A DNA stretch of 62,810 nt, the filler included, from Thermodesulfobacteriota bacterium (lineage in GTDB: Bacteria > DASVDK01), in assembly GCA_036381125.1 (NCBI GenBank). It is 4 parts of 4 records of this genome, joined end to end, with 100 filler letters (N's around TTAATTAATTAA, not from the genome) between each part and the next. Parts side by side here need not be neighbours in the genome. Positions count along the whole stretch, not along the records: positions 5,848 to 20,892 come from DASVDK010000118.1; 3 more parts are not named here. One strand, written 5' to 3'. Numbering within the stretch: the stretch's first letter is position 1; every line of letters begins with the position of its first letter. Position numbers and translations under genes: made by a program. This document shows positions 5,848-22,525 of the stretch, in pieces. The notes beneath the pieces are model-generated. The model saw nothing but the letters and a program-made list of their open reading frames with translations, made no database searches and was not told the origin of the DNA.

Positions 5848-7182
5848 GACGACGACGACGTCGAGCGTGGCCCCCGGCCGCTTGAGCTTGAGCCAGGCGC
5901 GGCCGCGCGTGCCGGGGAGGTAGGGCGACGAGGGGTCCTTGACCATGAGCCCCTCGTTGCCGCGAGCCCGGGCCTCCTCGAACCGCCGATCGAGGCGGGC
6001 CGCCGCGTCGTCGGCGCGCGTCTCGACCGGGTCGGCCGGGGAGAGGAAGAGCGGCGGCGAGAGCGGCAGCGCGGCCAGGCGCGCCCGCCGGGCCTCGAGC
6101 GGGGCGTCGAGCAGCGACCCGCCGGCGTCGATCAGGCAGTCGAAGGCGACGTAGACGACCGGCACCTCGCGCACGAGCGCCTCGGTCACGGCCTTGCGGC
6201 CGAGGCGCCGCTGGAGCTGACCGAAGGGGAGGGCCCGGCCGTCGCGCCACGCGAGCACCTCGCCGTCCAGGATGAGCGGCCCCGGCAGGCGCGCCAGGGC
6301 GGTCGCGACCTCCGGGAAGCGGCCGGTCACGTCCTCGAGGCGCCGCGAGAAGAGCGCCACGCGACCGTCGGCGCCCACGTGGGCCGTCGTGCGGACGCCG
6401 TCGAGCTTGTCCTCGACGAGCGCCGCGCCGTCGATCCGCCGCAGGGCATCGGCCGCATCGGCCGCCGGCGTGGCGAGCATGACCGACGTGGGCCGGAAGA
6501 GGACCGGGGCCGCCTCGTCGAGCCGGCCCGCCTTCGCGAGACGCGCCGCCTCGCCCACGTCGCCGCCGAGGAGCATCGCCGCGCGCTGGATGGCGGCGAG
6601 CGGCGCGCCGAAGGCGACGCCGAGCGCCTCCTCCACGAGGCGCTGCTTGAGGCCGATCCGGAGGTCGCCCCCCGCGATCTTGAGGAGGTACTTCGCCTCG
6701 GCCGGCGAGGCGCGGTGCAGGAGCGCGCCGAAGCGGGCGGCCCTGGCGCCCGGACCGCGGGCGGCCGCGATCCGGTCGAAGGCGGCGCGGGCGTCGAGCA
6801 GCGCGACGCCGGTCGGCGCCGCGTGCGGGGCTTCGGCCCGCTCCCCCCGGCGGCTCGCCTCGGCGGCGGCGCTCGCCGCCTCCCGGCGTCCGGCGAGCAG
6901 CCGTTCCGCGGCCGAGCCGAGGTCGCCCGTCCTGAGCGTCTCGGCGTCGATGGCGGCGGGGTCGAGCGCGGCGGCGCCGGCCAGGGCGGCCCTGAGACCG
7001 GCGTACCCCAGGCCGAGGCTCCTCGGGTCCCAGGGCGGGAACGGGCGCCCGGCGAGGAAGGTGCAGGCGACCGGCAGCGAGGCGTCGTCGAGCGAGGCGA
7101 GGTAGGCCACGAGCGCCGCCCGCTTGGCCAGGCGGGAGCGCGTGGCGCCCACCGCCTCGCACGCGGCGGCGAAGGCACGCAT
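5848..7182 (-). CDS. lig: ATP-dependent DNA ligase, 3' end truncated by contig break
   Basis: Motif I EDKLDGVR, LFSRRLEDVT, ILDGEV, AFDCL, EGLMVKDP, YLPGTRGRAWLKLKR. Confidence 0.93.
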
Positions 7183-7230
7183 GCGAGAGATTGTAGAGGC
7201 CGGTCGGGCCGTCGCGGGGGCCGGAACGTC

Positions 7231-7259
7231 TTGTCCCGACCGGCGCGATCGGCTAGAGT
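7231..7259 (+). promoter_or_regulatory. Candidate sigma70 promoter of the grd-like operon
   Basis: TTGTCC (7231-7236), 17 nt spacer, TAGAGT (7254-7259), 80 nt upstream of ATG 7339. Confidence 0.5.
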
Positions 7260-7282
7260 GGCCCTGCGTCGCGAGAAAAACG

Positions 7283-7303
7283 GCGTTTCTCTACGAGAAA
7301 CGC
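7283..7303. promoter_or_regulatory. Perfect inverted repeat, candidate IclR operator
   Basis: GCGTTTCTC-TAC-GAGAAACGC between the predicted promoter and first gene; operon encodes an IclR protein. Confidence 0.6.
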
Positions 7304-7338
7304 GTCGGGCCCTCTCGAGGGGCAGGTGGAGGCAGGCG

Positions 7339-8607
7339 ATGCGTCTCGACGTCGCGTCCTTCCCGGTACGACGCGCCGAGCTCGGCGCGCGGACCCGCTA
7401 TGCGGACGGGGTCCTCACGATCGGCGTCGAGGCGGTGCGGTCGCTCGTCCTCCAGGACCCACGCGTTCGCGACGTCCGGCTCGAGGTCGTCCACCCGGGC
7501 GACTCGGCGAGGGTCCTGCGCCCCCTCGACGCGATCGAGCCGCTCCGCAAGGTCGAGGGACCCGGCAGCGCGTTCCCGGGGTTCAACGGCCCGCCCCACA
7601 CCTGCGGGCGCGGCCGGACCCACCGGCTCGAGGGGTTCTCGGTGGTCGAGGTCGCGGAGTTCCCGTTCCCGGCGAGCGGCGTGCAGGCCGTCGAGGAAGG
7701 GATCATCGAGATGACCGGACCCGGGGCCGCCTACGCCGGCTGCGCCGATCGCGTGAACCTGCTCCTCGTCTGCACGCCGGGACCGGCGTCGAGCAACGAC
7801 GACTACGACGACGCGGTCCGGCGCGCGGGGCTTCGGGTCGCCGACCACCTGGCCGGGGCGACGATCGGCCTCGAGCCGGTCCGCGTGGAGCGCTTCGAGC
7901 TCGCCGGCGTGCGGCCCGGCCTGCCCCGGGTGGTCTGGGTCCACCAGGTCAGGAACCAGGGGCCGATGGTGCGCACGTTCCTCTACGGTCACGAGATGGC
8001 GAACCTCGTGCCGACGGTGCTCCACCCGAACGAGCTGCTCGACGGCGCGCTGGTGGGCGCCAACTACAAGACCGGCACCAAGACGCCGACTTACATGCAC
8101 ACCCGCCACCCGTCCCTCGAGTCGCTCTACGCGCGGCACGGGCGGGACCTCGAGTTCGTCGGCGTCGTCGTCTCCCGGGGGCACCACGAGAACGAGTTCC
8201 TCAAGGAGCGCTCCGCGCACTTCGTGGCGAAGCTGGCCGGCATGCTCCGCGCGGACGGGGCGCTCTGCACGTACGAGGCGACGGGGAACACCCACGTGGA
8301 CTTCATGCTGACGGTGCAGGCGCTCGAGCGAGCGGGGATCCGGACCGGGGCGGTCGTGCACGAGTACGGCGGGCCGGAGGGGACCGACGCCCCGCTCGTC
8401 GACTTCGCGCCGGAGGCGATCGCCCTCGCCAGCAGCGGCGGCATCGATCGGCGCATCCGCCTGCCGGCGGTCGAGCGGCTCATCGGCGGGACCCACCTGG
8501 CGCACCGCGGCATCCCGGCCGGGGGGGAGATCGAGGTCAGCATCCAGGAACTGTACGCGGTGACGGCCGAGATGAACCGTCGCGGCGTCGTGGCGCAGGA
8601 ATACTAG
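7339..8607 (+). CDS. Glycine/sarcosine/betaine reductase component B proprotein-type subunit (GrdE/GrdG/GrdI family), lacking the pyruvoyl-forming Cys
   Basis: GGAGG RBS; DAIEPLRKV, GRGRTHRLEG, IIEMTGPGA, TFLYG, PTVLHPNELLDGA, YARHGRDLEFVGVV; 422 aa; directly upstream of grdB-like gene. Confidence 0.88.
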   Translation: MRLDVASFPVRRAELGARTRYADGVLTIGVEAVRSLVLQDPRVRDVRLEVVHPGDSARVLRPLDAIEPLRKVEGPGSAFPGFNGPPHTCGRGRTHRLEGFSVVEVAEFPFPASGVQAVEEGIIEMTGPGAAYAGCADRVNLLLVCTPGPASSNDDYDDAVRRAGLRVADHLAGATIGLEPVRVERFELAGVRPGLPRVVWVHQVRNQGPMVRTFLYGHEMANLVPTVLHPNELLDGALVGANYKTGTKTPTYMHTRHPSLESLYARHGRDLEFVGVVVSRGHHENEFLKERSAHFVAKLAGMLRADGALCTYEATGNTHVDFMLTVQALERAGIRTGAVVHEYGGPEGTDAPLVDFAPEAIALASSGGIDRRIRLPAVERLIGGTHLAHRGIPAGGEIEVSIQELYAVTAEMNRRGVVAQEY

Positions 8608-8609
8608 CG

Positions 8610-9932
8610 ATGCGAGTCGTCCACTACCTCAATCAGTTCTTCGGCGGCATCGGCGGCGAGGACCGGGCCGACGCGCCGCCGCAGGCGCGCGAGGGGGCGG
8701 TCGGGCCGGGGCTCGCGCTCGAGCAGGCGCTCGGCGGCGACGGGCGGGTCGTCGGGACGGTCGTCTGCGGGGACGGGACGTTCGCCGACCGACCCGACGA
8801 GGCGGCGGCGGAGGTCGTGGCCCTCGTCGAGCGGTTCGCCCCCGACGTCGTGGTGGCCGGGCCCGCCTTCAACGCGGGCCGCTACGGCCTCGCCTGCGGG
8901 CGGGTCTGCGTGGAGGTGGAGCGGCGGCTCGGCCGGCCGGCGCTGACGGGGATGTACCACGAGAACGCCGCCGTCGAGCTGTACCGGCGGGACGTCGTGA
9001 TCGTCTCGACCAGCGCCACGGCCGGCGGCATGCGGGCGGCGATCGAGACCATGGCGCGGCTCGCGAGGACGCTCGGGCGAGGGGAGGCGCTCGGGCCGGC
9101 CGCGGTGGAGGGCTACCTTCCGCGCGGCCGCCGGATGAACGGCCGGGCCGGCCGGCCGGCCAGCGCGCGCGCCCTCGACCTGCTGATGGCGCGCCTGGCC
9201 GGTGAGCCGTTCGAGACCGAGGTGCCGCTGCCGACGTACGCGCCGGTCGCCCCGCCGGCGCCGGTGGCCGACCCCGCCGGCATGCGCCTCGCGCTCGTGA
9301 CGGAGTCCGGCCTCGTCCCGCCGGGCAACCCGGATCGGCTCGAGTGGGTGCGGGCGAGCAAGTGGCTCAGGTACAGCCTGGCCGGCAAGGACGACCTCGG
9401 GCGCGGCGAGTTCGAGGTGGTCCACAGCGGCTACGACGCCTCGTTCGCCCTCGACGACCCGGACCGGCTCTTGCCGGTGGACGCGGTCCGCGAACTCGTG
9501 CGCCTGGGGGAGATCGGCTCCCTGCTCGACGCCTATTACGTCACGTGCGGCAACCACGGCATCCTCGGGCAGATGGAGCGGTACGGCCGCGAGATCGCGA
9601 CCGAGCTCCGCGAGCAGAACGTCGACGCCGTGCTCCTCGTCGCCACCTGAGGGTCGGGCACGCGTAGCGGCGCTACGCTCGCGAAGGAGCTGGAGCGGGC
9701 CGGGCTGCCGACCGTCACGGTCACCAGCCTCCCGTCGGTCGCCCTCAAGGTCGGCGCCAATCGGGTCCTGCGCGGCCCTCGGTTCAGCCATCCGTGCGGC
9801 AACCCGGCCCTCGGCGAGCGGGACGAGCGGGCGTGGCGGATCGAGTTCCTGCGTCACGCCGTCCGGGCGCTGGGGACGCCGGTCACCGGTCCGACCCTCT
9901 TCGACCCTACCGGGACCGGGGGGCAGGCATGA
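8610..9932 (+). CDS. grdB: Reductase selenoprotein B (GrdB/GrdF/GrdH family), Sec at codon 347
   Basis: MRVVHYLNQFFGGIGGED, AGPAFNAGRYG, MYHENAA, DPDRLLPVD; in-frame TGA 9648-9650 then GSGTRSGATLAKELERAGLP...VGANRVLRG..FSHPCGNP (conserved GrdB C-terminus) to TGA 9930-9932, overlapping the next ATG. Confidence 0.92.
9662..9678 (+). promoter_or_regulatory. Putative bacterial SECIS of grdB-like gene
   Basis: GCGTAGC-GGC-GCTACGC perfect 7-bp stem beginning after an 11-nt spacer from the UGA; loop starts with G; uses CGT and GCT codons that are uncommon here. Confidence 0.75.
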
Positions 9933-11359
9933 CCTTCCCGGTCGTCACCGCCGTCGCGAACGTGCTCGCCCACGCGCCGGGGCTGGTGCGCTACGGCTCG
10001 AGGCCGGTGCGCGACCTCGCCCGTGATCCCTCGCGTGCCGGGACGCTCGCCGGGCACCTCCGGCCGTACGAGGACGCGGTTGCGTACGGGCCGAACCAGG
10101 CGTACGTCGGCAACCTCGCCCCCGAGGCGCTGCGCGACGTCGCCCGTCCCTGGTTCCGGAGCCTCGACCGGTCGGCGCCGGCCGACGGCGAGTTCGGCAG
10201 CCTGATCGGCGAGGCCGAGCTGCTCGGGCTGCTCAAGCTCTGCGACCGGGCCCAGCTCGTCCAGCTCGACGAGCCGACCCTGGCGGCCGGCGGCGCCCGG
10301 CTGATCGCGAGGCGTCTGGCCGACGCGGACGCGGTCGGGCGCCTTCGGGCGTCGCCGGCCGGCGCCATCGAGCAGGCGATCGAGAGCGGCGAGGCGATTC
10401 CGCTCTGGCTCGGAGGACGGATCGTCGGCGCCGTCGCCCGCGGTCACGAGGAGGACGAGGCGCTCACCGCCAACGTCCTGCTCGAGAACCTTGCGGCCAA
10501 GGCCACGGGCGTCCTGGCGCTCCGGCACCTGCTGCGGCAGGTCGAGCGGCGCCTCGGACCGAACGACATCGACTTCGTCATCGCCGGGTCCGAGGAGGCC
10601 ATCGGCGACCGCTACCAGCGCGGGGGCGGCAACGTCGCCAAGGCGATCGCCGAGGAGGTCGGCCTCGCGCGCGCCACCGGCTTCGACGTGAAGGCCTTCT
10701 GCGCCTCCACGCTCTACGCGGTGGTCAACGCGGCGGCGCTCGTCCAGGCCGGCGTCTTCTCCCGCGTGGCGGTCGTGGCCGGCGGCTCGCTCGCGAAGCT
10801 CGGCATGAAGTATCGGGCCCACGTGGCCAGGGGGATGCCGATCCTCGAGGACGTGCTCGCCGGCATCGCGATCCTCGTCGAGCGGGCCGGCGCCGAGGGC
10901 CCGACCGTCCGCCTCGACACGCTCGGCCTCCACGCAACCGGGGCCGAGTCGTCGCAGCAGGCGGTGGTCGAGGCGCTCGTGATGGGGCCGCTCGCGAAGG
11001 CGGGATGCCGGCTGACCGAGGTGGACCGGTACGCGACGGAGATGCACAACCCGGAGGTCACCGAGCCGTCGGGCAGCGGCGACGTCCCGCTCGGCAACTA
11101 CCGGTTGATCGCCGCCCTCGGCGCCATGCGCGGGGACATCCCGAGGGACGGGATCCACGACTTCATCGCCCGGCACGGCCTGCCGGGCTACGCGCCGACG
11201 CAGGGCCACATCGCCTCGGCCGTCTGCTACCTGGGGCACGCGGTACGGGGCATGCGGGCCGGTCGTCTCGAGCGCGTCCTCTTCATGGCGAAGGGGAGTC
11301 TGTTCCTCGGTCGGATGACGCAACAGTCCGACGGCGTGTCGTTCCTGCTGAGTGCCTGA
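9929..11359 (+). CDS. grdC: Reductase complex component C beta subunit (GrdC, FabH-like fold)
   Basis: LLENLAAKATG, SEEAIGDRYQRGGGNVAKAIAE, FDVKAFCA, AKLGM, EMHNPEVTEPSGSGDVP, APTQGHI, KGSLFLGRMT..SDGVSF; ATGA overlap with grdB. Confidence 0.92.
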   Translation: MTFPVVTAVANVLAHAPGLVRYGSRPVRDLARDPSRAGTLAGHLRPYEDAVAYGPNQAYVGNLAPEALRDVARPWFRSLDRSAPADGEFGSLIGEAELLGLLKLCDRAQLVQLDEPTLAAGGARLIARRLADADAVGRLRASPAGAIEQAIESGEAIPLWLGGRIVGAVARGHEEDEALTANVLLENLAAKATGVLALRHLLRQVERRLGPNDIDFVIAGSEEAIGDRYQRGGGNVAKAIAEEVGLARATGFDVKAFCASTLYAVVNAAALVQAGVFSRVAVVAGGSLAKLGMKYRAHVARGMPILEDVLAGIAILVERAGAEGPTVRLDTLGLHATGAESSQQAVVEALVMGPLAKAGCRLTEVDRYATEMHNPEVTEPSGSGDVPLGNYRLIAALGAMRGDIPRDGIHDFIARHGLPGYAPTQGHIASAVCYLGHAVRGMRAGRLERVLFMAKGSLFLGRMTQQSDGVSFLLSA

Positions 11360-11372
11360 GCCGGAGGAACCC

Positions 11373-11834
11373 ATGGACCTGAAGGGCAAGCGCGTGCTCG
11401 TCATCGGTGAGCGCGACGGCGTGAGCGGGGCGGCGATCGAGAGCTGCGTCCGCAGCGCCGGCGCCGAGGTGGTGTACGTCGAGACCCAGTGCTTCGTCTG
11501 AACGGCGGCGGGCGCCATGGACCTTGAGGGTCAAGGTCGGATCAAGCAACTGGTGGACCGCATCGGCACCGACGGCGTCGTCGCCGTCCTCGGGGCGAAC
11601 TCCCCCGAGGCGGTGGAAATGGTCGCCGCCACGCTGAAGAACGGGGACCCGAGCTACGCGGGCCCGCTGGCCGGGGTCGCGCTCGGCATCCCGTCGTTCC
11701 ACGTCCTCGAGCCGGAGATCACCCGACAGATCGCCCCGGAGGTCTACGAGCGCGAGCTCGCGCTGCCGGCCCTGGCCATGGACGGCGAGGCGGTGACCGC
11801 GCCGGTCAGGGCGATCCGCGAGGGCAGGGCCTGA
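11373..11834 (+). CDS. grdA: Reductase selenoprotein A (GrdA), CxxU motif, Sec at codon 43
   Basis: GGAGG RBS; MDLKGKRVLVIGERDGV...TQCFV[TGA 11499-11501]TAAGAMDLEGQ...GDPSYAGPLAGVALG; canonical CFVUTAAGAMDLE signature; track ORF shows only the post-UGA half. Confidence 0.95.
11520..11538 (+). promoter_or_regulatory. Putative bacterial SECIS of grdA
   Basis: GACCTTGA-GGG-TCAAGGTC perfect 8-bp stem 18 nt after UGA; built from CTT/GGT/CAA/GGT codons atypical of this GC3-rich genome. Confidence 0.78.
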
Positions 11835-11840
11835 CCGCAC

Positions 11841-12686
11841 ATGGCCGCGCGCAAGGCTGCCGAGGCGGCCGCGCCGCTCCGTTCGGTGGACCGCGCCCTC
11901 GCCCTGCTCGAGTGCCTGGCCGGCCTCCCGCAGCCGGTGGCGCTGGGGGACCTCGCGCGCCGGCTCGTGGTGAGCAAGGCGGGGGCCTTCCGGCTCCTCG
12001 CGACGCTCAAGCGCCGGGGCTTCGTCCGCCAGCTCGAGGACGGGCGATACGCCCTGGGCCTCAGGTGCTGGGAGATCGGTTGGGCGGTGCTGGGGGAAGG
12101 CGGCATCCGGGAGGCGGCGGCGCCGATGATGGCGGCGCTGGTCGAGCAGACCGGGGAGTCGATCCACCTGGCCGTCTACGATACGGGCGACGTCGTCTAC
12201 ATCGACAAGCGGGAAGGTTCGCAGCCGGTGCGCGCCTACTCGCACGTCGGCGGCCGCGCGCCGGCCTACTGCGTGGCAACGGGAAAGGTGCTCCTCGCCT
12301 TCGCGGGCGAGGCCGAATGGGAGCGGGTGACGCGAGCCGGGCTGCGGCGCTTCACCCCTCGCACCATCGTCGACCCCGGTGACCTGCGGTCGGAGCTGGC
12401 CGCGGTGGTCGCCCAGGGCTACTCGCTGAACCGCGGCGAGTGGCGGGCGGAGGTCGCGGGGATCGCGGCGCCGATACGGGACTTCACGGGGAGCGTCGTC
12501 GCGGCGATCGGGACCTCCGGGCTGGCGACGCACTACACCGCGGCGCGCATCCGGCAGATGGTCCCGCAGGTGCAGGCGGCCGCGGCCGAGGTCTCGAGTC
12601 GACTCGGGTTCATCAGGAGGCGACAGGAGGGAGGCCATGGAACGGAAGCTCACGACGCTGTCGGACGCGGCCGGGCTCGTCGCTGA
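11841..12686 (+). CDS. IclR-family transcriptional regulator
   Basis: SVDRALALLE HTH, RLLATL..RGFV, TGESIHLAV, VVYIDK, PAYCVATGKVLLAF, GIAAPI; C-terminal tail overlaps next gene by 50 nt. Confidence 0.93.
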   Translation: MAARKAAEAAAPLRSVDRALALLECLAGLPQPVALGDLARRLVVSKAGAFRLLATLKRRGFVRQLEDGRYALGLRCWEIGWAVLGEGGIREAAAPMMAALVEQTGESIHLAVYDTGDVVYIDKREGSQPVRAYSHVGGRAPAYCVATGKVLLAFAGEAEWERVTRAGLRRFTPRTIVDPGDLRSELAAVVAQGYSLNRGEWRAEVAGIAAPIRDFTGSVVAAIGTSGLATHYTAARIRQMVPQVQAAAAEVSSRLGFIRRRQEGGHGTEAHDAVGRGRARR

Positions 12687-13476
12687 CGGGTCGACCATCG
12701 CCTTCGGCGGCAGCCTGCTGCACCGGATCCCGGCAAGCTTCGCGCGCGAGGTGGCCAGGCAGGGGCGGCGCGGTCTCCGGTTCGTCAAGCCGTCGGCGGC
12801 CTACGACCTCGACCTCCTCTGCGCGGCCGGATGCGTCTCGACGGTGGACGCCGGCATCGTCGCCATGGAGGGAGGCTTCGGGCTCGCCCCGAGCTACCGG
12901 GCGGCCGTGGAGAGCGGCCGGGTCACCGTCCACGAGCACGCCTGAATCTCGCTGGTCGCCGGGCTGCGGGCCGCAGCCTTCGGGATCCCGTTCATGCCGG
13001 TCGCCGGGATGCGCGGCAGCGACGTGCCGGCCGCCGGCGGCCTTCGCCTCGCAAAGGACCCCTTCACGGGGGAGGAGGTCTACGCGGCGCCCCGCCTCGA
13101 CCTCGACTGGGCGGTCCTGCACGTCCAGGAGGCCGACCCCCTCGGCAACGCGCGCGTCTACGGCACCCCGTTCTGGGACCGCGTGATGTCGCGGGCGGCC
13201 AAAGGGGTCATCGTGACGGCCGAGCGGATCGTGCCGACCGAGGAGCTGGCGCGGCAGCCCGAGCTGACGCTGGTCCCGGGGATCCTCGTGCGGGCGGTCG
13301 TCCACGCGCCGCACGGCGCCTGGCCGGCGAGCTGCACGCCGTACTACGAGATCGACCGGGCGGGCGTGGCCGCGTACCTCGCCGCCTCGGCCGACCCGGA
13401 GGCGCTCGGACGGCACCTCGAGACGACGGACGAGGCGCTGCGGCGGACGGCCGCGCGCGCGGCGGCGGAACGGTGA
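12637..13476 (+). CDS. Family-I CoA-transferase-like alpha subunit with in-frame UGA (putative Sec103)
   Basis: GGAGG RBS; track ORFs 12637..12945 and 12994..13476 are one frame split only by TGA 12943-12945; read-through gives VHEHA-U-ISLVAGLRAAAFGIPFMPV...DPFTGE...LHVQEADPLGN...VTAERIV...GAWP, a complete 279-aa GctA-like subunit ending in a GTGA overlap. Confidence 0.85.
12961..12979 (+). promoter_or_regulatory. Putative bacterial SECIS of CoA-transferase alpha gene
   Basis: G-GGCTGCG-GGC-CGCAGCC-T: 7-bp perfect stem plus G-U pair, 15 nt after UGA, same GGC loop as the grdB hairpin. Confidence 0.68.
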
Positions 13477-14204
13477 GCGCCGTGGCCGCCGGGACGCCGG
13501 AGACGATGATCTGCGCCATCGCGCGGCTCCTGCGCGACGGCGAGCGGGTGTTCCACGGGGTCGCCTCGGTGATCCCGATGCTCGCCGTGAACCTCGCACG
13601 GAGGGTCCACGCCCCGCGCCTGACCTACATCAACATCGCGGGCGGGATCGACCCCGCGCCGCGCTACCTGCCCGAGTCGAGCACCGACCCCGAGCTCGCG
13701 CGGGGGAGCGCGTCGATCTTCAACAACGAGGACTTCTACGACCTCTGCGCCCGAGGGGGGATCGACGTGGCCTTCCTCGGCGCGACGCAGATGGACGCCC
13801 TGGGACGGACCAACAACAGCGTGATCGGGCCGTACGACCGGCCGAAGGTCCGCCTGCCGGGCGGCGGCGGGGCGGCGGTCGTGCTCCCCACCGCGCGTCG
13901 GGTGATCGTCTGGCGCACGGTCCACACGCCGAAGGTCTTCGTCGAGCGGCTCGACTTCGTGACCGGGGTCGGCAACCTCGACCGCGTGGTGACCCCGCTC
14001 TGCGTCTTCCAGCGGCGGGACGGACGGCTCGCGGTCGAGTCGATCCACCCGGGCCACACGCGCGAGGAGGTGGCGGCCCGGACCGGCTTCGCGCTCGAGA
14101 TCCCGCCCGACGTCCCGACGACCCCGCCCCCGACGGAGGCCGAACTCGCGGCGATCGAGGCGATCGACCCGCGCGGCGTCCGCCGGATCGAGTTCGGATC
14201 GTGA
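13473..14204 (+). CDS. Family-I CoA-transferase-like beta subunit (GctB-like), catalytic Glu apparently absent
   Basis: GTG 13473; IARLLRDGE, ARRVHAP, DVAFLGATQMDALGRTNNSVIG, RLPGGGGA, FVERLDFVT, VVTPLCVF, HPG, TGF, IDPRG. Confidence 0.88.
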   Translation: MSAVAAGTPETMICAIARLLRDGERVFHGVASVIPMLAVNLARRVHAPRLTYINIAGGIDPAPRYLPESSTDPELARGSASIFNNEDFYDLCARGGIDVAFLGATQMDALGRTNNSVIGPYDRPKVRLPGGGGAAVVLPTARRVIVWRTVHTPKVFVERLDFVTGVGNLDRVVTPLCVFQRRDGRLAVESIHPGHTREEVAARTGFALEIPPDVPTTPPPTEAELAAIEAIDPRGVRRIEFGS

Positions 14205-15718
14205 CGCCGACGCTCGGGGAAGCGCTGGCGCGGCAGGCGGCCCGGGCGGATCTGCGCGGCCGCCCCTTCATCCTGACCGACGGGGACGCGATCACCTTCG
14301 GCGACCTCGACCGCCTGGCGGCGCGCGTCGCCGGCCGGCTCGCCGAGGCGGGCGTCCGGCCGGGCGACGTGGTCTCGGCGCTCCTGCCGAACTCGCCGGC
14401 CTTCGTCGTCGACATGTTCGGCGCGTACCGGGCCGGGGCCCGCTTCTGCCCGCTCAACCCGCGCCTGACGCCGACGGAGATCCGCTTCCAGCTCGCGGAC
14501 TCGGGGGCGCGCGTGGTGGTGACCGACGCCGAGCACGCGCCGCTCTTCGCGCGGCTCGCCGCGGAGCTCCCCTCCCTCGCGCACGTCCTGGTCCTGGCCG
14601 ACCGGGAGGACCTCGCGGGGCTGCCCGATCCCCCGGGCGCCGCCCCGTCCGCCGTCGAGGATCCCGACGCGGTCGCGCTCGTGATGTACACGTCGGGGAC
14701 GACCGGCTCGCCCAAGGGGGTGATGCTGTCGCACCGGAACGTCCTCCTGAACGCCTCGCAGGTCATGGAGCGGAGCGAGGTGACGGCGGACGACCGGGTG
14801 CTCCACATCATGCCGCTCTTCCACACCAACGGCATCGTCAACACGACCGTGGGCCCGCTCCTCGCCGGCGCCTCCATCGCGCTCCGGCCGCGCTTCGACC
14901 TCGCCGACTTCTGGCCCGCGGTGGCCCGCTTCCGGCCGACCTACTTCACCGGCGTGCCGACCGTCTACAGCCGCTTGCTCGCCGCGCCCGATCCGGGACT
15001 CGACCGGTCGTCGCTCCGATTCGTCCGCTGCGGGTCGGCGCCGATGCCGGTCGAGCTCCAGGAGCGGGTCGAGGCGTGGCTCGGCGTCCCGGTCGTCATC
15101 AGTTACGGCCTCGCCGAGGGGACCTGCACGAGCACGATGAACCCCGTGTCGGGCCGGCGCAAGGTGGGATCGGTGGGGCTGCCGCTCTCGGGGCAGGAGG
15201 TGAGGATCCACGACGACGCCGGGCGCGAGCTGCCGGCCGGCACGGTGGGCGAGGTCTGCATCCGCGGGGGGACCGTCATGCAGGGGTATCTCAATCGGCC
15301 GGAGGAGACCGCCGCCGTCCTTCGCGACGGCTGGCTCCGGAGCGGCGACCTCGGCTACCTCGACGCCGACGGCTATCTCTTCCTGACCGACCGGAAGAAG
15401 GACATCATCATCCGGGGGGGCGAGAACATCTCGGCGCGGGAGGTCGAGGACGTCCTCTACCGACACCCGGCCGTCCTGGAGGCCGCGGTCGTCGGCGCGC
15501 CCGACCCGGATCTCGGCGAGCAGCCGGTGGCGTGCGTGGTGCCGCGGCCGGGCGCGACCATCGACGCGGGCGAGCTGATCGAGTTCTGCCGCGAGCGGCT
15601 CGCCCGCTTCAAGACGCCGCGTCGCGTCGTCGTCCTCGACGACCTGCCGAAGAACGGCGTCGGCAAGATCGTGAAGGCGGCGCTTCGCGAGCGGGTCGGC
15701 GGGGGGAGCGCGCCGTGA
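14201..15718 (+). CDS. Acyl-CoA synthetase (AMP-forming, ANL superfamily)
   Basis: YTSGTTGSPKG, PLFH, SYGLAE, GWLRSGDLG, DRKKDIIIRGGENI, LPKNGVGK. Confidence 0.95.
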   Translation: MTPTLGEALARQAARADLRGRPFILTDGDAITFGDLDRLAARVAGRLAEAGVRPGDVVSALLPNSPAFVVDMFGAYRAGARFCPLNPRLTPTEIRFQLADSGARVVVTDAEHAPLFARLAAELPSLAHVLVLADREDLAGLPDPPGAAPSAVEDPDAVALVMYTSGTTGSPKGVMLSHRNVLLNASQVMERSEVTADDRVLHIMPLFHTNGIVNTTVGPLLAGASIALRPRFDLADFWPAVARFRPTYFTGVPTVYSRLLAAPDPGLDRSSLRFVRCGSAPMPVELQERVEAWLGVPVVISYGLAEGTCTSTMNPVSGRRKVGSVGLPLSGQEVRIHDDAGRELPAGTVGEVCIRGGTVMQGYLNRPEETAAVLRDGWLRSGDLGYLDADGYLFLTDRKKDIIIRGGENISAREVEDVLYRHPAVLEAAVVGAPDPDLGEQPVACVVPRPGATIDAGELIEFCRERLARFKTPRRVVVLDDLPKNGVGKIVKAALRERVGGGSAP

Positions 15719-16146
15719 CGTACCGCGACTGGTACGGCGCGCTGGCCTTCCTCCTCGCCTCGGCTGCCGTCGTGGCCGGGGCGATCCGACTCGGCGTCGG
15801 CACGCTGCGGGATCCCGGTTCGGGATTCGCGCCGCTCGCGTTCGCGGCGGTGCTCGGGCTCCTCTCCGTCATCCGGCTCGTCGGGACCATCCGCGCGGCG
15901 CCGTACCGGGTCGAGGGCCGGTGGCTGCGGGTGGCGGCGGTCTGCATCCTCCTGCTCGCGTGGGGCCTCGCCGTGCAGACGGTCGGCTACCTGGTCGCCA
16001 CGTTCCTGGTGGCCATAGGCTTCGTGCTGGTCGGCGGCCGCTCCGTCTACGCGGCGCTCGCCTTCGGCGTGGGGGCGGCCCTCGCGGTCGAGTTCGTCTT
16101 CGTGCGCTGGCTCGCGACGCCGCTGCCGCGCGGGACCCTCTTCTAG
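15715..16146 (+). CDS. tctB: Tripartite tricarboxylate transporter small subunit TctB
   Basis: GTG 15715; LGVGTLRDPGSGFAP, four hydrophobic segments, C-terminal WLATPLPRG; directly before tctA. Confidence 0.82.
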   Translation: MTYRDWYGALAFLLASAAVVAGAIRLGVGTLRDPGSGFAPLAFAAVLGLLSVIRLVGTIRAAPYRVEGRWLRVAAVCILLLAWGLAVQTVGYLVATFLVAIGFVLVGGRSVYAALAFGVGAALAVEFVFVRWLATPLPRGTLF

Positions 16147-16149
16147 GCC

Positions 16150-17646
16150 ATGGAGACCCTCGACCTCCTCGCCCAGGGCTTCCAGGTCGCCCTCACGCCG
16201 ACCAACCTGCTCTTCGCGCTCGTCGGCGTCACGGTCGGCACGCTCGTCGGCGTCCTCCCGGGGCTCGGACCCTCCGGCGCGCTCGCCATCCTCCTGCCGA
16301 CGACCTACCAGGCGTCGCCCGTCTCCTCGATCATCATGCTCGCCGGCATCTACCACGGCGCCATGTACGGCGGGTCGACGACCTCGGTCCTCGTGAACAT
16401 CCCGGGCGAGGCCTCCTCGGTGGTGACCTGCCTCGACGGCTACCAGATGGCGCGCCGGGGTCGCGCGGGACCGGCGCTCGGGATGGCCGCGTTCGCGTCG
16501 TTCATCGCCGGCACGCTCTCGCTCGTCGGGCTCATCCTCCTGGCCCCCCCGCTCGCCGCCTTCGCCCTGCGCTTCGGGCCGACGGAGTACTTCGCCCTGA
16601 TGGTCGCCGGGCTGGTGATCCTCTCCTACATGACGCACGGGTCGATGGTGAAGGGGCTCATGATGGCGGCGGCCGGCCTCGTCCTCGGCACGGTCGGCCT
16701 CGACACCATCACCGGGCGTCCCAGGTTCACCTTCGGGCTGACCGAGCTGTCGGACGGGATCGGCTTCCTGCCGATGGCCATGGGGCTCTTCGGGATCGCC
16801 GAGGTCCTGGTCGGCCTCGAAGGGGGAGAGAAGCGAGACGTGTACACCGGAAGGCTGCACGGGCTCCTGCCGACTCGGCGCGACTGGTCGGAGTCGGGCC
16901 TTCCGATCGCGCGCGGCTCGGTGATCGGCTTCCTCCTCGGGATCCTCCCCGGCGGGGGGGCGGTGCTGTCCTCCTTCGTGTCGTACGCGGTCGAGCGGCG
17001 CCTCGCCCGGCGGCCCGAGGAGTTCGGGAAGGGGGCGATCGCCGGGCTGGCCGGACCGGAAGCGGCCAACAACGCCGGCTCGACGGGCGCGTTCATCCCG
17101 ATGCTGTCGCTCGGGATCCCGTCGAACTCGGCGACGGCGATTCTCCTCGGCGCCCTGCTGATCTACGGTGTGCAGCCGGGGCCGCTCCTCATGCGGACGC
17201 ACCCCGACCTCTTCTGGGGGGTCGTCGCGAGCATGTACCTCGGCAACCTGATGCTGCTCATGCTCAACCTTCCGCTCATCGGTCTCTGGGTGCGGCTGTT
17301 GAGGGTGCCGTACGACTATCTCTTCCCGGCGATCCTCCTCTTCTGTCTCGTGGGGGTCTACAGCGTCAACAACAGCACGACCGAAGTCCTGCTCATGGTC
17401 GCGTTCGGCCTCCTCGGCTACCTCCTGCGGAAGGCCGGCTTCGACCCGGCGCCGATGGTGCTGGCGCTCATCCTCGGGCCGATGCTCGAGCTGAACTTCC
17501 GGCAGGCGCTGATCCTGAGTCAGGGTGACCTGACGGCGTTCGTCCGGCACCCGATCGCGGCCGTGTTGCTCCTCGTCGCGGCCGTCCTGCTCGTGCTCCC
17601 GATCGTCCAGGACCTTTCCAGGAAGAAAGGAGACCGTCATGCGTAG
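16150..17646 (+). CDS. tctA: Tripartite tricarboxylate transporter large subunit TctA
   Basis: GTLVGVLPGLG, GAMYGGSTTSVLVNIPGE, DGYQMA, PEAANNA, LSLGIP. Confidence 0.95.
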   Translation: METLDLLAQGFQVALTPTNLLFALVGVTVGTLVGVLPGLGPSGALAILLPTTYQASPVSSIIMLAGIYHGAMYGGSTTSVLVNIPGEASSVVTCLDGYQMARRGRAGPALGMAAFASFIAGTLSLVGLILLAPPLAAFALRFGPTEYFALMVAGLVILSYMTHGSMVKGLMMAAAGLVLGTVGLDTITGRPRFTFGLTELSDGIGFLPMAMGLFGIAEVLVGLEGGEKRDVYTGRLHGLLPTRRDWSESGLPIARGSVIGFLLGILPGGGAVLSSFVSYAVERRLARRPEEFGKGAIAGLAGPEAANNAGSTGAFIPMLSLGIPSNSATAILLGALLIYGVQPGPLLMRTHPDLFWGVVASMYLGNLMLLMLNLPLIGLWVRLLRVPYDYLFPAILLFCLVGVYSVNNSTTEVLLMVAFGLLGYLLRKAGFDPAPMVLALILGPMLELNFRQALILSQGDLTAFVRHPIAAVLLLVAAVLLVLPIVQDLSRKKGDRHA

Positions 17647-18592
17647 GCGCATTGCCCTGCTCGCCGCGGTGCTCGTCGGCTCGCTCGCCGCGACTGCTCG
17701 GGCCGACGACTTCCCGAGCCGAGCGATCACCCTGATCATTCCGACATCGCCGGGCGGCTCGGCCTCGGTGTCGGGGCAGATCATCGCCGAGGCGCTCAAG
17801 CGGGAACTCAAGCAGTCCGTCCTGATCGTGTACAAGCCGGGCGCCGCGCAGGCCCTCGGGACCGAGCAGGTCCTCAAGTCCCGCCCGGACGGCTACACGC
17901 TCGGCTGGACCTTCGAGCCGGACCTCGCCTCCAAGATGGTGGCCGACGGCAAGAGCCTCTCGTTCGGGAAGGGCGACCTGGTGCACCTCGGCGCCGCCGG
18001 CTTCGCGCCCTACTTCCTCTGGGTGAAGGCCGACGCGCCGTGGAAGACGCTCGACGAGCTGGTGGCCGCCGGGAAGCAGAAGGGCATCTCCTACAGCTCG
18101 TCCGGCGTCGCGACGATGGGCCACGTCTACGCGGAGATGTTCGTGCGCCGGGCGGGGATCAAGGCGACGCACGTCCCGTACCAGGGGGGAGGGCCGGCGA
18201 CGACCGCGCTGCTCGGCGGGCACGTCGACATGTCCGTCGGCTCGTACGGCCGCATGAAGCAGTACATGGACTCGAACCTCGTCCGGCCGCTCGCGATCCT
18301 CGTGGACGAGCGGCTGCCCGACCTCGCGGAGGTGCCGACGCTCGAGGAGCGGGGCCTCGACCTTCCCATCCAGGGCCAGATCTACCACCACCTCTTCGGG
18401 CCGAAGGGGATGCCGCCCGCGGTCGTCGAGACGATCACCAGCGCCTTCGAGCGGGCGGTTCGCGACCCGGCGACGCAGCAGGCGCTCGTGAAGGCCGGGT
18501 TCGACGGGCGGTGGCTGTCCGCGAAGGCCACGGAGGAGGCCTGGCTCAAGGACTTCGCCATCGTCGAGGAGGCGCTGTCGCAGATCAAGTAG
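17639..18592 (+). CDS. tctC: TctC/Bug family substrate-binding protein
   Basis: Signal peptide; FPSRAITLIIP.SPGG, KPGA, PDGYTL, HVPYQGGGPA..ALLGGHVD, VPTLEE. Confidence 0.92.
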   Translation: MRRRIALLAAVLVGSLAATARADDFPSRAITLIIPTSPGGSASVSGQIIAEALKRELKQSVLIVYKPGAAQALGTEQVLKSRPDGYTLGWTFEPDLASKMVADGKSLSFGKGDLVHLGAAGFAPYFLWVKADAPWKTLDELVAAGKQKGISYSSSGVATMGHVYAEMFVRRAGIKATHVPYQGGGPATTALLGGHVDMSVGSYGRMKQYMDSNLVRPLAILVDERLPDLAEVPTLEERGLDLPIQGQIYHHLFGPKGMPPAVVETITSAFERAVRDPATQQALVKAGFDGRWLSAKATEEAWLKDFAIVEEALSQIK

Positions 18593-18704
18593 GATCGGGG
18601 CTCCGGCGCGCCCCGCGCGCGCCGGAAGCCGCCCCCGGCGCGGGCCGCCTCGGAGGCGCTACCGGGAGGTCGGGTCGATGGTCCGCGGGCCGGGGAAGCG
18701 CCGG

Positions 18705-18836
18705 AAGTCCGCACCCACGCGATCCGGACGGGCGCCGGTCCCGAGAAGGCGGCCTCGAGCCAGGTCCGGCATCGATCGTGATGCGGCGACCGGAGATCGG
18801 AGGCGTGGAGGAGCACGTTGGCGTCGACAGCGTCAT
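18705..18836 (-). pseudogene. VapC (PIN) toxin remnant, frameshifted and truncated
   Basis: ATG 18836 is one base out of frame with VDANVLLHASDLRSPHHDRCRTWLEAAFSGPAPVRIAW (PIN N-terminus); similarity ends after about 45 codons. Confidence 0.7.
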
Positions 18837-19036
18837 CGCCGCAACGGCCCCTCGATCTGGTCGAGCAGCTCCTCGACGTTGTCGTAGCTCGGACCGGGCC
18901 GCAGCCCGCCGAGGTCACGGGTGCGGACCTCGAATCGGGCGGCCGGCGCCTCGCACCGGGAGGCGAGCCCGAGCCGCAACGCCTCGGCCTTCAGCTTCGC
19001 GGCGACGTCCGGGTCCAGGGTGAGCGTCGTTCGCAC
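18833..19036 (-). pseudogene. VapB-like (RHH) antitoxin, internally shortened
   Basis: GTG 19036: MRTTLTLDPDVAAKLKAEALRLGL...SYDNVEELLDQIEG; stop overlaps vapC ATG; central RHH helix appears missing. Confidence 0.6.
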
Positions 19037-19059
19037 ATCGTGCTGCTTTGTCCGATGCA

Positions 19060-19710
19060 TCACGAAGTCAAGTCGGCCGGGGCGCCGCGCGCCGCCGCCC
19101 GGAGCGCGGCGGTCCTCCGCTTCGCCGCGCGCCGCCAGACGCGGTAGCCGAGGAGCGCCGCCAGGGCGGCGGCGAAGAGGGCCGGCTCGCGCGTGTCGGC
19201 CTTGACGAGGAGGAAGTAATGGACCACGCCGAGGACGGCGGCGGGGTAGACGAGGTAGTGGAGCCGCTGCCAGCGCTTGCCGCCGAGGCGGCGCACCCAG
19301 CCGTCGGTCGAGGTGACCGCGAGCGGCACGAGCATGAGGAACGCCGTCATGCCGACGGTGATGTAGGGGCGCTTGACGATGTCGGCCCCGATGGCGCCCC
19401 AGTCGAAGAAGTGGTCGACGGCCACGTAGTTCGTCACGTGGAGCGCGACGTAGCCGAACGCCACGAGCCCGAGCATGCGGCGCAGCCGGATCGCCCGGTT
19501 CCACCGGGTGAGCTGGCGCAGCGGCGTGACGGCGAGGCTCGCCAGGAGGAGCGCGAGTCCCCACCAGCCGAGGAGCCGCGTGGCCGCCTCTATGGGGTTG
19601 GCCCCGAGCCGGTCGGTGAAGAACCAGTAGACGCCGTGGGCAAGCGGCAGGAGCGCCAGCCCGAAGACGATCGGCCTGACGACCCACCTGAACCGAAGCT
19701 CGGCGGACAC
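19060..19710 (-). CDS. msrQ: Methionine sulfoxide reductase heme subunit
   Basis: LGANPIE, LAVTPLR, RRMLGL..FGY..LH, KRPYITVG, PLAVTST, WQRLHYLVY. Confidence 0.95.
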   Translation of the reverse strand: MSAELRFRWVVRPIVFGLALLPLAHGVYWFFTDRLGANPIEAATRLLGWWGLALLLASLAVTPLRQLTRWNRAIRLRRMLGLVAFGYVALHVTNYVAVDHFFDWGAIGADIVKRPYITVGMTAFLMLVPLAVTSTDGWVRRLGGKRWQRLHYLVYPAAVLGVVHYFLLVKADTREPALFAAALAALLGYRVWRRAAKRRTAALRAAARGAPADLTS

Positions 19711-19712
19711 CG

Positions 19713-20675
19713 CTAGTAGTACGTCCTGAGGTCCATGCCGGCGTAGAGGCTCGCGACCTGCTCGGCGTACCCGTTGAAGGGGAGCGTGTCGCGCCGCCGG
19801 AACTCGCCGATGCGCCGCTCCGTCTTCTGGCTCCAGCGGGGGTGGTCCACCTCCGGGTTCACGTTCGAGTAGAAGCCGTACTCCGAGGGCTGGGCGGCGT
19901 TCCACGCCGTGGGCGGCATCCGCTCGACGAGCCGGATCCTCACGATCGACTTGATGCTCTTGAAGCCGTACTTCCACGGGACGACGAGCCGGATCGGCGC
20001 GCCGTTCTGGTTCGGCAGCTCCTTCCCGTAGAGGCCGACGGCGAGGATCGTGAGCGGGTGCATGGCCTCGTCGATCCGAAGCCCCTCGCGGTACGGCCAG
20101 TCGAGGATCCGCCGGCGCTGCCCCGGCATCTGCTCCGGGTCGTGGAGCGTCTCGAACGCGACGAACTTCGCGCGCGAGGTCGGCTCGAACCGCTCGAGCG
20201 CCTTGCCGAGCGGGAAGCCGATCCAGGGGACGACCATCGACCAGGCCTCGACGCAGCGCAGGCGGTAGATCCGCTCCTCGAGGGGGTGCGGCTTGACGAA
20301 GTCCTCGTAGGCGACGACGCCGGGCTTCGCCACCTCGCCCTCCACGGCGATCGACCAGGGCCTGACCCGGAGCGACCCCGCGTACCGCTTCGGATCCTCC
20401 TTGTCGGTGCCGAACTCGTAGAAGTTGTTGTACGAGCTGATCGCGTCGAACGAGGTCAGCGGCTCGTCGGTGGAGAGCGGGCTCCTGGTGAAGGCGAGCG
20501 TCCGGAGGGGGCGCGCCGGCTCGGCCGCGGTGGCGCCGCTCCCGTCGCGCGAGCAGCCGACGGCCGCCGCGGCGAACGCGAAGAGGCCGGTCTTGATGAA
20601 GCGGCGCCGCGCCGCGTAGACGCCCTCGGGCGTGATCTCGGACGAGGGGCTATCCGGCGGTCGCCTGATCAGCAT
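19713..20675 (-). CDS. msrP: Methionine sulfoxide reductase molybdo-catalytic subunit
   Basis: SEITPE..Y..RRRFIK Tat signal, [60 protein letters not shown] before ATG 20675. Confidence 0.96.
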
Positions 20676-20892
20676 GTGGCCTCCACTCACGGTCCCGGGA
20701 CCGATGCTCTGTGTCCCCTCGATACTACCAACCGCGGCCGCGATGCAAGCGCGAGACGGAGCGCGCCGTAACGCGGATCACCGCTCGGCCTGCTCGCCGG
20801 GAAGGCGCGCCTCCCCGCCACCCGCGCCGCCGGCCGGGCGGCGATCGGCAAAGGTCAGATGGCCCAAACCAGGTTCTGAGATAGACGAGCGC

Positions 20893-20992: not shown

Positions 20993-21372
20993 CGCTCTGC
21001 GCCGCCGATCGGCGGCGCGACGATCGGCCCTCGCGCTTCCGCGGCTTCGAGGCGATCGAGTCCCTGACCTATCGCAGCACGACCAACGTGGACACCGTCT
21101 GCCACTGGTGCCCGTGCAACTGCAAGCGGACCTTCATCGACGTCCGGCTCGCGGAGGGCAAGGGGCGGCCCTGGAGCAAGCTGCCGCTGGCGGAAGGCTG
21201 GGAGCGCGTCATCAGCGGCAACTCCTGCCCCAAGGGGCTCGTCGAGGACGTGAACGAGATGCGGGTGGTGAAGGGCAAGCTCGAGGAGGTCAAGCGTGCC
21301 TATCCGAACCTGGCCGAGGTGGTTCGCAAGGAGGGCTTCCGCCGACCGACCGGCCCCGTCCAGTCGGGCTAG
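20993..21372 (+). CDS. C-terminal part of a CoA-substrate-specific enzyme activase (BadF/BadG/BcrA-type), truncated at contig start
   Basis: FRGFEAIESLTY...CHWCPCNCKRTFIDV...ISGNSCPKG...PNL Cys-rich linker typical of this family. Confidence 0.65.
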
Positions 21373-22525
21373 TCTCCGGGTCGGGATCCCGAAGGTCCTC
21401 AACGTCTGGTCGACCCACCAGTTCTGGGTCGGCTTCCTCACGGCGCTCGGGATCGCCCCGGGCGCCATCGTCTTCTCCTCGGACACCTCCGAGGAGCAGG
21501 GCCGGCAGTTCGGCAAGGGCCGCGGCACCGTCGACTGCTGCTACCCGGTCAAGTGCGTCTCGGGCCACTACGGGGAGCTCCTCTTCGGGCAGCGGAAGAA
21601 GATCGACATCCTGCTGTCGCCCATGATCTACTCCCTTCCCTCGTTCCTCGGCCCGCACGTGGTCCAGACCCTCTCCTGCCCCAGGGTCATGGCCGCGCCC
21701 GAGAACATCAAGGCCGGCTTCACCAAGGAGCGCGACCTCTTCGCCGAGCTAGGCGTCCGGCACGTGGCGCCGCTCGTCTCCCTGGGGGAGCCCGCGCTCG
21801 TCCCGAAGGAGCTCTACGGCGCGTTCCAGGACGTGCTGCCCGGCCTGACGCTCGAGGAGACGACGCGGGCGGTCGAGGCGGGCTACCGGACCCTCGAGGC
21901 GTTCAACGACCGGCTCCGCAGGACGGCGCGAGAGGTCCTCGAGTGGTGCGCGCGCGAGGAGCGTCCGTGCCTCCTGATCCTGGCCCGGCCCTATCACATG
22001 GACCCCGGCATCGGGCACGAGATCGAGGTGGACCTGCAGGCCTTCGGCTACCCGGTCCTCTGGGCGCAGTACCTGCCGATCGACGCCGACCTCGTGCAGT
22101 GGGCCTTCGGCCCGGACGTCGCCGCGGGCGACGTCCGGTCGCCCTTCAGCATCGCCGACGTGTGGCCCTCTTCCTACAGCTCCAACACGAACGAGATCCT
22201 CTGGGGGGCGAAGGTCGCCGCACGCATCCCCTGGATCGCCTGCGTGATCCGGCTCGCGAGCTACGAGTGCGGCATGGACCAGCCGACCTACACGCCGGTC
22301 CAGCAGATCGTCGAGCGCTCCGGCACCCTCTTCTTCTCCTTCCAGGAACTCGACTCGACCAAGCCGGCCGGCTCGGTGAAGATCCGGGTGGAGACGATCG
22401 CCCACTACCTCGAGCGGTACGGGCGCGAGATCATCGAGAAGAAGAAGGCCGTGATGCCGGCCGGGTGTCCGCTGCTCCCGGCCGGGACCGGCGCGGCGGC
22501 GAGCCCCGTCGCCGCCCGGGCGTGA
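21296..22525 (+). CDS. Acyl-CoA dehydratase activase-related protein (DUF2229 / 2-hydroxyacyl-CoA dehydratase-like)
   Basis: RVGIPKVLN, DCCYPVK, SCPRV, LARPYHMDPGIGHEI, SYECGMD, DSTKPAGSVKIRVETI; start uncertain. Confidence 0.75.
   Translation: MPIRTWPRWFARRASADRPAPSSRASLRVGIPKVLNVWSTHQFWVGFLTALGIAPGAIVFSSDTSEEQGRQFGKGRGTVDCCYPVKCVSGHYGELLFGQRKKIDILLSPMIYSLPSFLGPHVVQTLSCPRVMAAPENIKAGFTKERDLFAELGVRHVAPLVSLGEPALVPKELYGAFQDVLPGLTLEETTRAVEAGYRTLEAFNDRLRRTAREVLEWCAREERPCLLILARPYHMDPGIGHEIEVDLQAFGYPVLWAQYLPIDADLVQWAFGPDVAAGDVRSPFSIADVWPSSYSSNTNEILWGAKVAARIPWIACVIRLASYECGMDQPTYTPVQQIVERSGTLFFSFQELDSTKPAGSVKIRVETIAHYLERYGREIIEKKKAVMPAGCPLLPAGTGAAASPVAARA

Follow-up and report, generated by a model that had tools for sequence, protein, structure and literature searches.

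A TGA codon very probably read as selenocysteine at the active-site position of a CoA-transferase-fold alpha subunit in a Thermodesulfobacteriota genome

Analysis of a 62,810-nucleotide stretch of DNA from a Thermodesulfobacteriota bacterium (DASVDK01; GenBank assembly GCA_036381125.1) revealed a gene for the alpha subunit of a heterodimer with the coenzyme A (CoA)-transferase fold that carries a single in-frame TGA codon. The whole stretch, hereafter the window, joins four parts of four records of this genome with 100 filler letters between each part and the next, and positions 5,848 to 20,892 come from DASVDK010000118.1. Comparison with homologous loci indicates that the TGA (12943-12945) is very probably a selenocysteine (Sec, U) codon and not a lesion. 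The best explanation of the evidence as a whole, in which we place high confidence, is a Sec-decoded alpha subunit belonging to a non-transferring acyl-CoA enzyme with a catalytic Sec103. In this scheme, the TGA would be decoded as Sec with help of the hairpin that follows it, giving an intact 279-residue alpha subunit that would pair with the adjacently encoded beta subunit in the fold of the family-I (glutaconate-type) CoA-transferases. The pair would belong to a distinct branch in which beta has lost its catalytic Glu and the alpha position matching IpdA Glu105 is occupied by an invariant Cys, for which several lineages have substituted Sec. TctABC would bring in a carboxylic acid, the neighboring ligase would convert it to its acyl-CoA, and the alpha/beta enzyme would act on this thioester with Sec103 as the catalytic residue. 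The central features of the locus are as follows.

12626..12634, + strand: Shine-Dalgarno-like GGAGGGAGG, read from the sequence, preceding the alpha ATG
12637..13476, + strand: gene for the alpha subunit of a CoA-transferase-fold heterodimer, 279 amino acids (aa) with a predicted Sec at residue 103; PF01144
12943..12945, + strand: in-frame TGA, very probably read as selenocysteine U103; Cys in full-length close homologs, TGA in 16 other loci
12961..12979, + strand: candidate bacterial selenocysteine insertion sequence (SECIS) hairpin, 8-bp stem GGGCUGCG/CGCAGCCU, loop GGC, beginning 15 nt past the UGA
13473..14204, + strand: gene for the beta subunit; PF01144; GTGA overlap with alpha, translationally coupled; Ile at the canonical catalytic Glu site

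The alpha open reading frame (ORF) matched the Pfam CoA_trans family PF01144 (E-value 9.5e-21) and contained one internal TGA, in the context …RVTVHEHA-U-ISLVAGLRAAAFGIPF… (…VHEHA-U-ISLVAGLRAAA…), and no other lesion. A first-pass annotation of this DNA had described exactly this, a 279-aa subunit intact except for one TGA, preceded by a good ribosome-binding site and translationally coupled to beta; the ORF reading, the Shine-Dalgarno-like element and the GTG start of beta at 13473, which overlaps the alpha stop codon (13474-13476), agree with it on all three counts. TGA also serves as the ordinary stop codon of 6/9 named genes here, alpha included, and the genetic code is therefore not reassigned; a list of ORFs with TGA read as U was uninformative, since TGA stops are so frequent in this DNA.

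The alignment of homologs that the same annotation had called for gave a uniform column. Among the 120 best matches listed, Cys occupied the U103 column in 117/117 full-length proteins (51-62% identity), and the remaining three were truncated ORFs of 83-96% identity that begin just past the column. A second search with a query from the more distant Sec clade described below (clade 2) gave Cys in 45/45 full-length proteins among the 118 new matches listed, and at least 73 clusters in the same list were C-terminal pieces starting 2-18 residues past the column. Conversely, at least 79 of the 120 short-protein matches listed were N-terminal pieces that end exactly at residue 102 (…EHA; 65-97% identity). 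In an alignment of 69 sequences of 38-62% identity, C103 and E100 were invariant.

All 17 Sec-type loci, the window included, had TGA at this column, and they fall into at least three sequence groups spanning 36-96% identity. The nearest genome (G001) holds a TGA ortholog of 96% identity and additionally a Cys paralog of 58% identity. Chloroflexota TGA loci came from four genomes (L012, 64%; L081, 70%; L082, 73%; L084, 59%). Clade 2 (L025 to L030, L062, L063, and L075; motif EGS-U-TA; 36-42% identity) is hosted by Syntrophomonadaceae, Desulfosporosinus, another Firmicutes metagenome-assembled genome (MAG), a deltaproteobacterial MAG, and metagenome contigs; eight of its nine ORFs are intact, 270-272 aa long and closed by TAA or TAG, and the ninth (L075) runs off the contig end. 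A third group (L087 and L090, in genomes G107 and G095) has the motif TEHT-U-ASIIAGLRASV (EHT-U-AS). Its 7-bp hairpin is placed differently, 25-45 nt past the TGA, and the Cys relative L089 reads EHTCASV. A metagenome scan contributed clade-2 members and Cys forms and no close Sec ortholog of the window. Among further Chloroflexota relatives (L091-L110), the alpha column held His in seven loci (e.g., EEWSH), Ser in three, Asn in seven, and Ala in one; many residues seem to have been tried at this site over the history of the fold.

This distribution bears directly on whether the TGA is a nonsense mutation that broke a pseudogene at a Cys codon, which we consider very improbable. TGA is the only stop codon one step away from a Cys codon (TGC/TGT), so that the uniform use of TGA is not by itself exclusive to Sec, and the beta gene at L012 looks frameshifted, so that this locus could be decaying. 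Against decay as the general explanation stand the recurrence of the TGA in 17 loci and at least three divergent groups with no second lesion, its occurrence in Sec-using genomes, and the state of the gene past the codon: conservation after and before the TGA is about equal (identity 0.68 vs 0.73, window vs L081), and many differences in the part past the TGA are synonymous only. The L012 beta gene (6927-7736; = L083) loses register with its relatives near the N-terminus and again across its final ~45 residues, which may reflect assembly indels or decay.

A sequencing or assembly error at 12943-12945 is less probable still and scarcely deserves credence. The source is a metagenome-type assembly, and among the Logan contigs listed for run X1, those identical to the window break between 12722 and 12954. 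However, the independent assembly G001 has the same TGA at 96% identity, and a 3038-nt contig of run X7, from another study, spans 12400-14300 without gaps and with 101 differences; as a weaker point, no difference at the codon appears among the 40 of 316 difference rows listed. No RNA run appears among the sequencing runs listed for this DNA.

The capacity to decode UGA as Sec was seen both in the window and in related genomes. Two selenoprotein genes lie upstream of alpha, as the first reading of the DNA had placed them:

8610..9920 (3' end not fixed), + strand: GrdB-family selenoprotein gene, Sec TGA 9648-9650, followed by a GGC-loop hairpin
11373..11834, + strand: GrdA selenoprotein A gene, CFVU motif, Sec TGA 11499-11501

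Since the window encodes a Sec-type grdA, the organism decodes UGA as Sec. G001 had hits above curated cut-offs for SelA (577 bits), SelB (341 bits), SelD (348 bits), and the tRNA for Sec (71.7 bits), and in five other TGA-carrying genomes SelB exceeded its cut-off in 5/5 and SelA in 4/5. A search of the window with ARAGORN found no tRNA, and tblastx of the G001 selA, selB, selD, and tRNA-Sec loci against the window returned just scattered short GC-rich matches. The SelD of G001 (L080, G001:C540) itself has an in-frame TGA and is thus of the Sec type. In the usual GrdB motif the Sec is followed, three residues on, by a Cys; the GrdB-family protein of the window (…LLVATUGSGTRSGATL…) lacks a Cys at that place and may be a divergent GrdB/GrdF/PrdB-like reductase.

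The candidate SECIS hairpin has the same GGC loop as that of grdB, which the first-pass annotation had pointed out, and the grdB and grdA hairpins of the window are similarly built (7-8 bp; loop GGC or GGG, placed 21-31 nt after the T of the TGA). A hairpin occurs at one fixed place in 11/11 distinct Sec sequences, in GC-rich and AT-richer genomes alike. Within clade 1, to which the window gene belongs, 5/5 Sec genes share the stem codons GGG CTG CGG GCC without change and the Cys homologs vary at every third position, and the L026 hairpin carries a compensatory synonymous pair (C-G to U-A). Codon identity at identical residues was raised over codons 104-115 relative to the rest of the gene in clade 2 (0.61 vs 0.41, the highest of 41 sliding windows) and in clade 1 (0.68 vs 0.56), and was level in the Cys controls (0.54 vs 0.54).

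The position of residue 103 in the fold was taken from models and alignments. The AlphaFold model of alpha (predicted local distance difference test score, pLDDT, 95.7) matched GctA, AibA, and IpdA with template modelling (TM) scores of 0.85-0.90, and by sequence and fold the closest solved alpha relatives were GctA (1POI), AibA (5MZW), and IpdA (6CON, 6CO6). U103 aligned with Glu in 6co6_A (VREMDEGMV), Ala in 6coj_A (VREMDAGMV), Gln in GctA, and Gly in AibA. Entry 6COJ is titled 'IpdAB E105A COCHEA-COA complex', and the U103 column is accordingly that of IpdA Glu105. The alignment proposed earlier, of U103 with the catalytic Glu of IpdA, thus reappears in the solved structures, and occupancy of an active-site position by U103 is supported by these comparisons. 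In the model, residue 103 opens helix 103-115 directly after strand 97-100, and a first-of-helix site suits an activated thiolate or selenolate.

The evolutionary relation between Cys and Sec forms was examined in a quick maximum-likelihood tree of 82 alpha sequences, 27 of them database proteins picked by hand; it omits the duplicates L011 and L030, 11 of 14 near-identical Gln-type rows, and any row that does not span residues 20-235. The Cys and Sec forms made up one group (Shimodaira-Hasegawa-like approximate likelihood ratio test, SH-aLRT, 81) separate from the types with Glu, Asn, or Gln. Sec was found in two separate, fully supported clades that also contain Cys forms, and the well-supported branches therefore force at least two Cys/Sec switches; the tree as drawn needs four. 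The Cys form P0124 (272 aa, 74% identity to the L026 protein) is nested in the otherwise Sec-only clade 2, a position that suggests either a Sec-to-Cys reversion or a recent switch to Sec in its neighbors.

The beta subunit provides the main evidence on function. Its best match in the PDB was AibB (117 bits), and it has Ile (LTYINIAGG) where a Gct-type beta carries the catalytic Glu (ESG), which sets it apart from functional family-I CoA-transferases; AibB Cys56 aligns with this Ile at the beta Glu site. In the available text of PMC7756340, the beta Glu is the catalytic residue of the Gcts. Alignment of 18 beta subunits showed that those paired with Gln- or Asn-type alpha subunits keep the Glu in ESG, EGG, or EFG, and that those paired with Cys-, Sec-, or Glu-type alpha subunits have I, V, L, T, A, or Y instead. 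The remaining genes of the operon, in the order IclR regulator, Sec-alpha, beta, acyl-CoA ligase, and TctBAC, are:

11841..12686, + strand: IclR-family regulator gene, directly upstream of alpha; adjacent also in the 96% ortholog locus L001
14201..15718, + strand: acyl-CoA ligase (AMP-binding) gene, start overlapping the beta stop
15721..18592, + strand: genes of the tripartite carboxylate transporter TctB, TctA, and TctC, downstream of alpha

The missing catalytic Glu of beta and the presence of an acyl-CoA ligase within the operon make it probable that the enzyme does not function as a CoA-transferase. The label 'family-I CoA-transferase' given on first reading therefore stands for the fold, with PF01144 in both subunits and a Gct-like architecture, and probably not for the function. 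A carboxylate transporter, a separate CoA-activating enzyme, and a Cys/Sec pair together fit an enzyme that, like IpdAB and AibAB, acts on an acyl-CoA and does not make it. A true CoA-transferase, the reading of the first-pass annotation, would require the alpha Sec or Cys to replace the beta Glu as the acyl or CoA carrier via a selenoester, which is unlikely: the fold, the two PF01144 domains, and the placement of the residue at the active site would suit it, but the ATP-dependent ligase is encoded in the operon itself, a transferring Sec pair would be redundant at L026, where a canonical Glu-bearing pair adjoins it, and the solved relatives that lack the beta Glu catalyse other reactions, IpdAB as a hydrolase and AibAB as a decarboxylase. 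The listed IclR ORF extends 50 nt into alpha, across its start codon, and its end or late frame may need checking. Farther along the window, a molybdopterin oxidoreductase ORF lies on the opposite strand at 19713-20690, and an ORF with a DUF2229 'CoA enzyme activase' domain at 21296-22525, ~3 kb past the Tct genes in window coordinates.

Gene context varied among the loci. A ligase homolog was found near the alpha/beta pair in 10 Cys-type loci, and the Cys locus L014 shares just the ligase with the window neighborhood. At the clade-2 locus L026 (1-5922), HdrA/C/B-like genes, another CoA-transferase pair whose beta subunit retains the Glu, and an MFS transporter gene precede the Sec pair, and Hdr-like genes lie upstream also at L027 (1596-5634), L062, and L063. 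These clade-2 Sec genes stand behind an HdrC-HdrB-HdrA(355 aa)-HdrC-HdrB-like cluster, which looks like a conserved uncharacterised anaerobic module. Such neighbors point to a possible redox role for Sec103, in which it would form a selenenylsulfide with CoA, a substrate thiol, or a partner Cys and be recycled by Hdr-like or thiol-reductase proteins, in a reductive acyl-CoA chemistry loosely like that of glycine or proline reductase. Although doubtful, this is the alternative to which we give the most weight. The HdrA/B/C-like genes are directly upstream in four clade-2 loci, NfnAB-like, DsbA, and AhpC genes adjoin L029, the window gene adjoins a grd cluster, and most known selenoproteins are redox enzymes (PMC13188914). 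On the other side, the window operon has no redox partner, just IclR, the ligase, and TctBAC; no second invariant Cys pairs with C103, C233 being nearly invariant yet present in GctA and AibA; and the Hdr link is missing at L029 and L030, while searches of the Chloroflexota loci with the clade-2 Hdr-like proteins found no homolog.

For the catalytic Sec103 of the proposed acyl-CoA enzyme, the role we favor is the one supposed in the first-pass annotation, that of a nucleophile, here on the carbonyl of the bound thioester substrate, a tentative assignment with somewhat less than an even chance, in which the selenolate would attack as in thiolase-like or IpdAB-like C-C or C-S cleavage. A general acid or base, acting like AibB Cys56 or IpdA Glu105 and not as a covalent nucleophile, is an unlikely alternative, somewhat ahead of true CoA transfer. 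Its support comes from the column itself, since U103 stands where IpdA has the Glu105 that was mutated in the E105A complex with substrate, and from AibAB, whose active-site Cys (AibB Cys56) was proposed as a general acid, not a nucleophile, in the available text of PMC7756340. The repeated Cys-to-Sec switches (at least two forced) fit nucleophilic or redox use. A selenol is largely deprotonated at neutral pH and is a better nucleophile or leaving group than proton donor. More speculatively, and somewhat less probable than the nucleophilic role alone, the selenolate could form a covalent selenoester or seleno-hemiketal, the Hdr-linked Firmicutes clade may instead cycle a selenenylsulfide, and the protein would be the first selenoenzyme with a CoA-transferase fold; if true, this would be a type of CoA-thioester reaction performed by no known selenoprotein or CoA-transferase relative.

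Beyond the AibB proposal and the condition of the L012 beta gene, several results weigh against a Sec-decoded acyl-CoA enzyme. The full Sec machinery was tested only in the nearest genome, G001. The fold energy of the hairpin was no better than that of shuffled sequences (z = +1.12; 176/200 shuffles fold at least as well) and was for that reason not used as evidence. A stem of at least 6 bp was present somewhere in 20/27 Cys homologs compared to 11/11 Sec sequences, and about 4/27 Cys homologs form a stem at the hairpin site, since the codons of the conserved GLRAAA peptide themselves spell the stem. In clade 1, codon identity peaks higher elsewhere in the gene than at the hairpin, and Rfam scans past the TGA of the window and L027 gave chance-level matches with no SECIS family among them. 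The hairpin evidence is thus supportive, not decisive. Regarding context, the Chloroflexota Sec loci L111 and L112 had no homologs of the ligase, IclR, or Tct genes within ~8 kb; MFS, DAO-type oxidoreductase, and aminotransferase genes neighbor L112, and L111 is without any of these. Because the neighborhoods of the Sec loci differ in this way, neither pathway nor substrate can be read from the context.

The first-pass annotation did not count CoA-transferases among the classical selenoprotein families, and the literature agrees: a 2026 review tabulates 119 prokaryotic selenoprotein families, with no CoA-transferase or PF01144 family among them in its Table 1 and text (PMC13188914). The main texts of BSepDB (PMC13326102) and deep-Sep (PMC12013277) make no mention of a CoA-transferase selenoprotein, nor do the main texts of the Olavius symbiont study, the Global Ocean Sampling (GOS) study, and the Haft and Gwadz preprint. 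Full-text literature searches combining selenoprotein or selenocysteine with CoA-transferase returned nothing relevant, and neither subunit has a dedicated model in NCBIfam release 20, whichever of the two clades is considered. NCBI names some of the split pieces 'hypothetical protein', and public annotations name relatives 'glutaconate CoA-transferase subunit A'. Gene callers divide the coding sequence at the TGA, and annotation and selenoproteome counts would consequently miss a family widespread in soil, sediment, and anaerobes. Its recognition would extend the selenoenzymes, most of which are redox proteins, to CoA-thioester metabolism, and the repeated selenium switch would mark the residue as chemically demanding and offer a handle for finding the reaction.

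Comparison with characterized systems places the window pair among solved relatives that share its fold and differ in where the catalytic residue sits. The glutaconate CoA-transferase GctAB (PDB 1POI) is the best sequence and fold match for alpha (E-value 1e-32, TM 0.87), with Gln at the column in GctA and a Gct-type beta that retains the Glu in ESG. The 3-methylglutaconyl-CoA decarboxylase AibA/AibB (PDB 5MZW-5N03) is the best solved match for beta; it no longer has the beta Glu and catalyses no CoA transfer, in the available text of PMC7756340, and combines Cys56 at the beta Glu site with Gly at the alpha column, compared to Ile in beta and the predicted Sec in alpha here. IpdAB (PDB 6CO6, 6CO9, 6COJ, and 6CON), the COCHEA-CoA ring-cleaving hydrolase of steroid catabolism, has the same fold pair (TM 0.88-0.90) and its catalytic residue on alpha at the U103 column, as proposed here. 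The likeness extends to beta, with the canonical Glu absent from the window beta and, among the three Glu-type loci aligned (L043, L045, and L071), from the beta subunits of L045 and L043. IpdAB acts on a CoA thioester without transferring CoA, in the available text of PMC6678751. The two differ in the residue at the column, Glu in IpdA and Cys/Sec here, identity is ~30-34%, the Cys/Sec proteins branch apart from the Glu type, and no steroid-catabolic genes were seen among the neighbors of the window pair (IclR, ligase, TctBAC, and grd genes). Compared to known selenoproteins, the PF01144 fold of alpha is neither thioredoxin-like nor another typical redox fold, and it shares with the grdA and grdB genes of the window an in-frame UGA followed by a GGC/GGG-loop hairpin of 7-8 bp. 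With this pair, the catalytic layouts within one fold would number four: Glu on beta in GctAB, Cys on beta in AibAB, Glu on alpha in IpdAB, and Cys/Sec on alpha in the pair described here.

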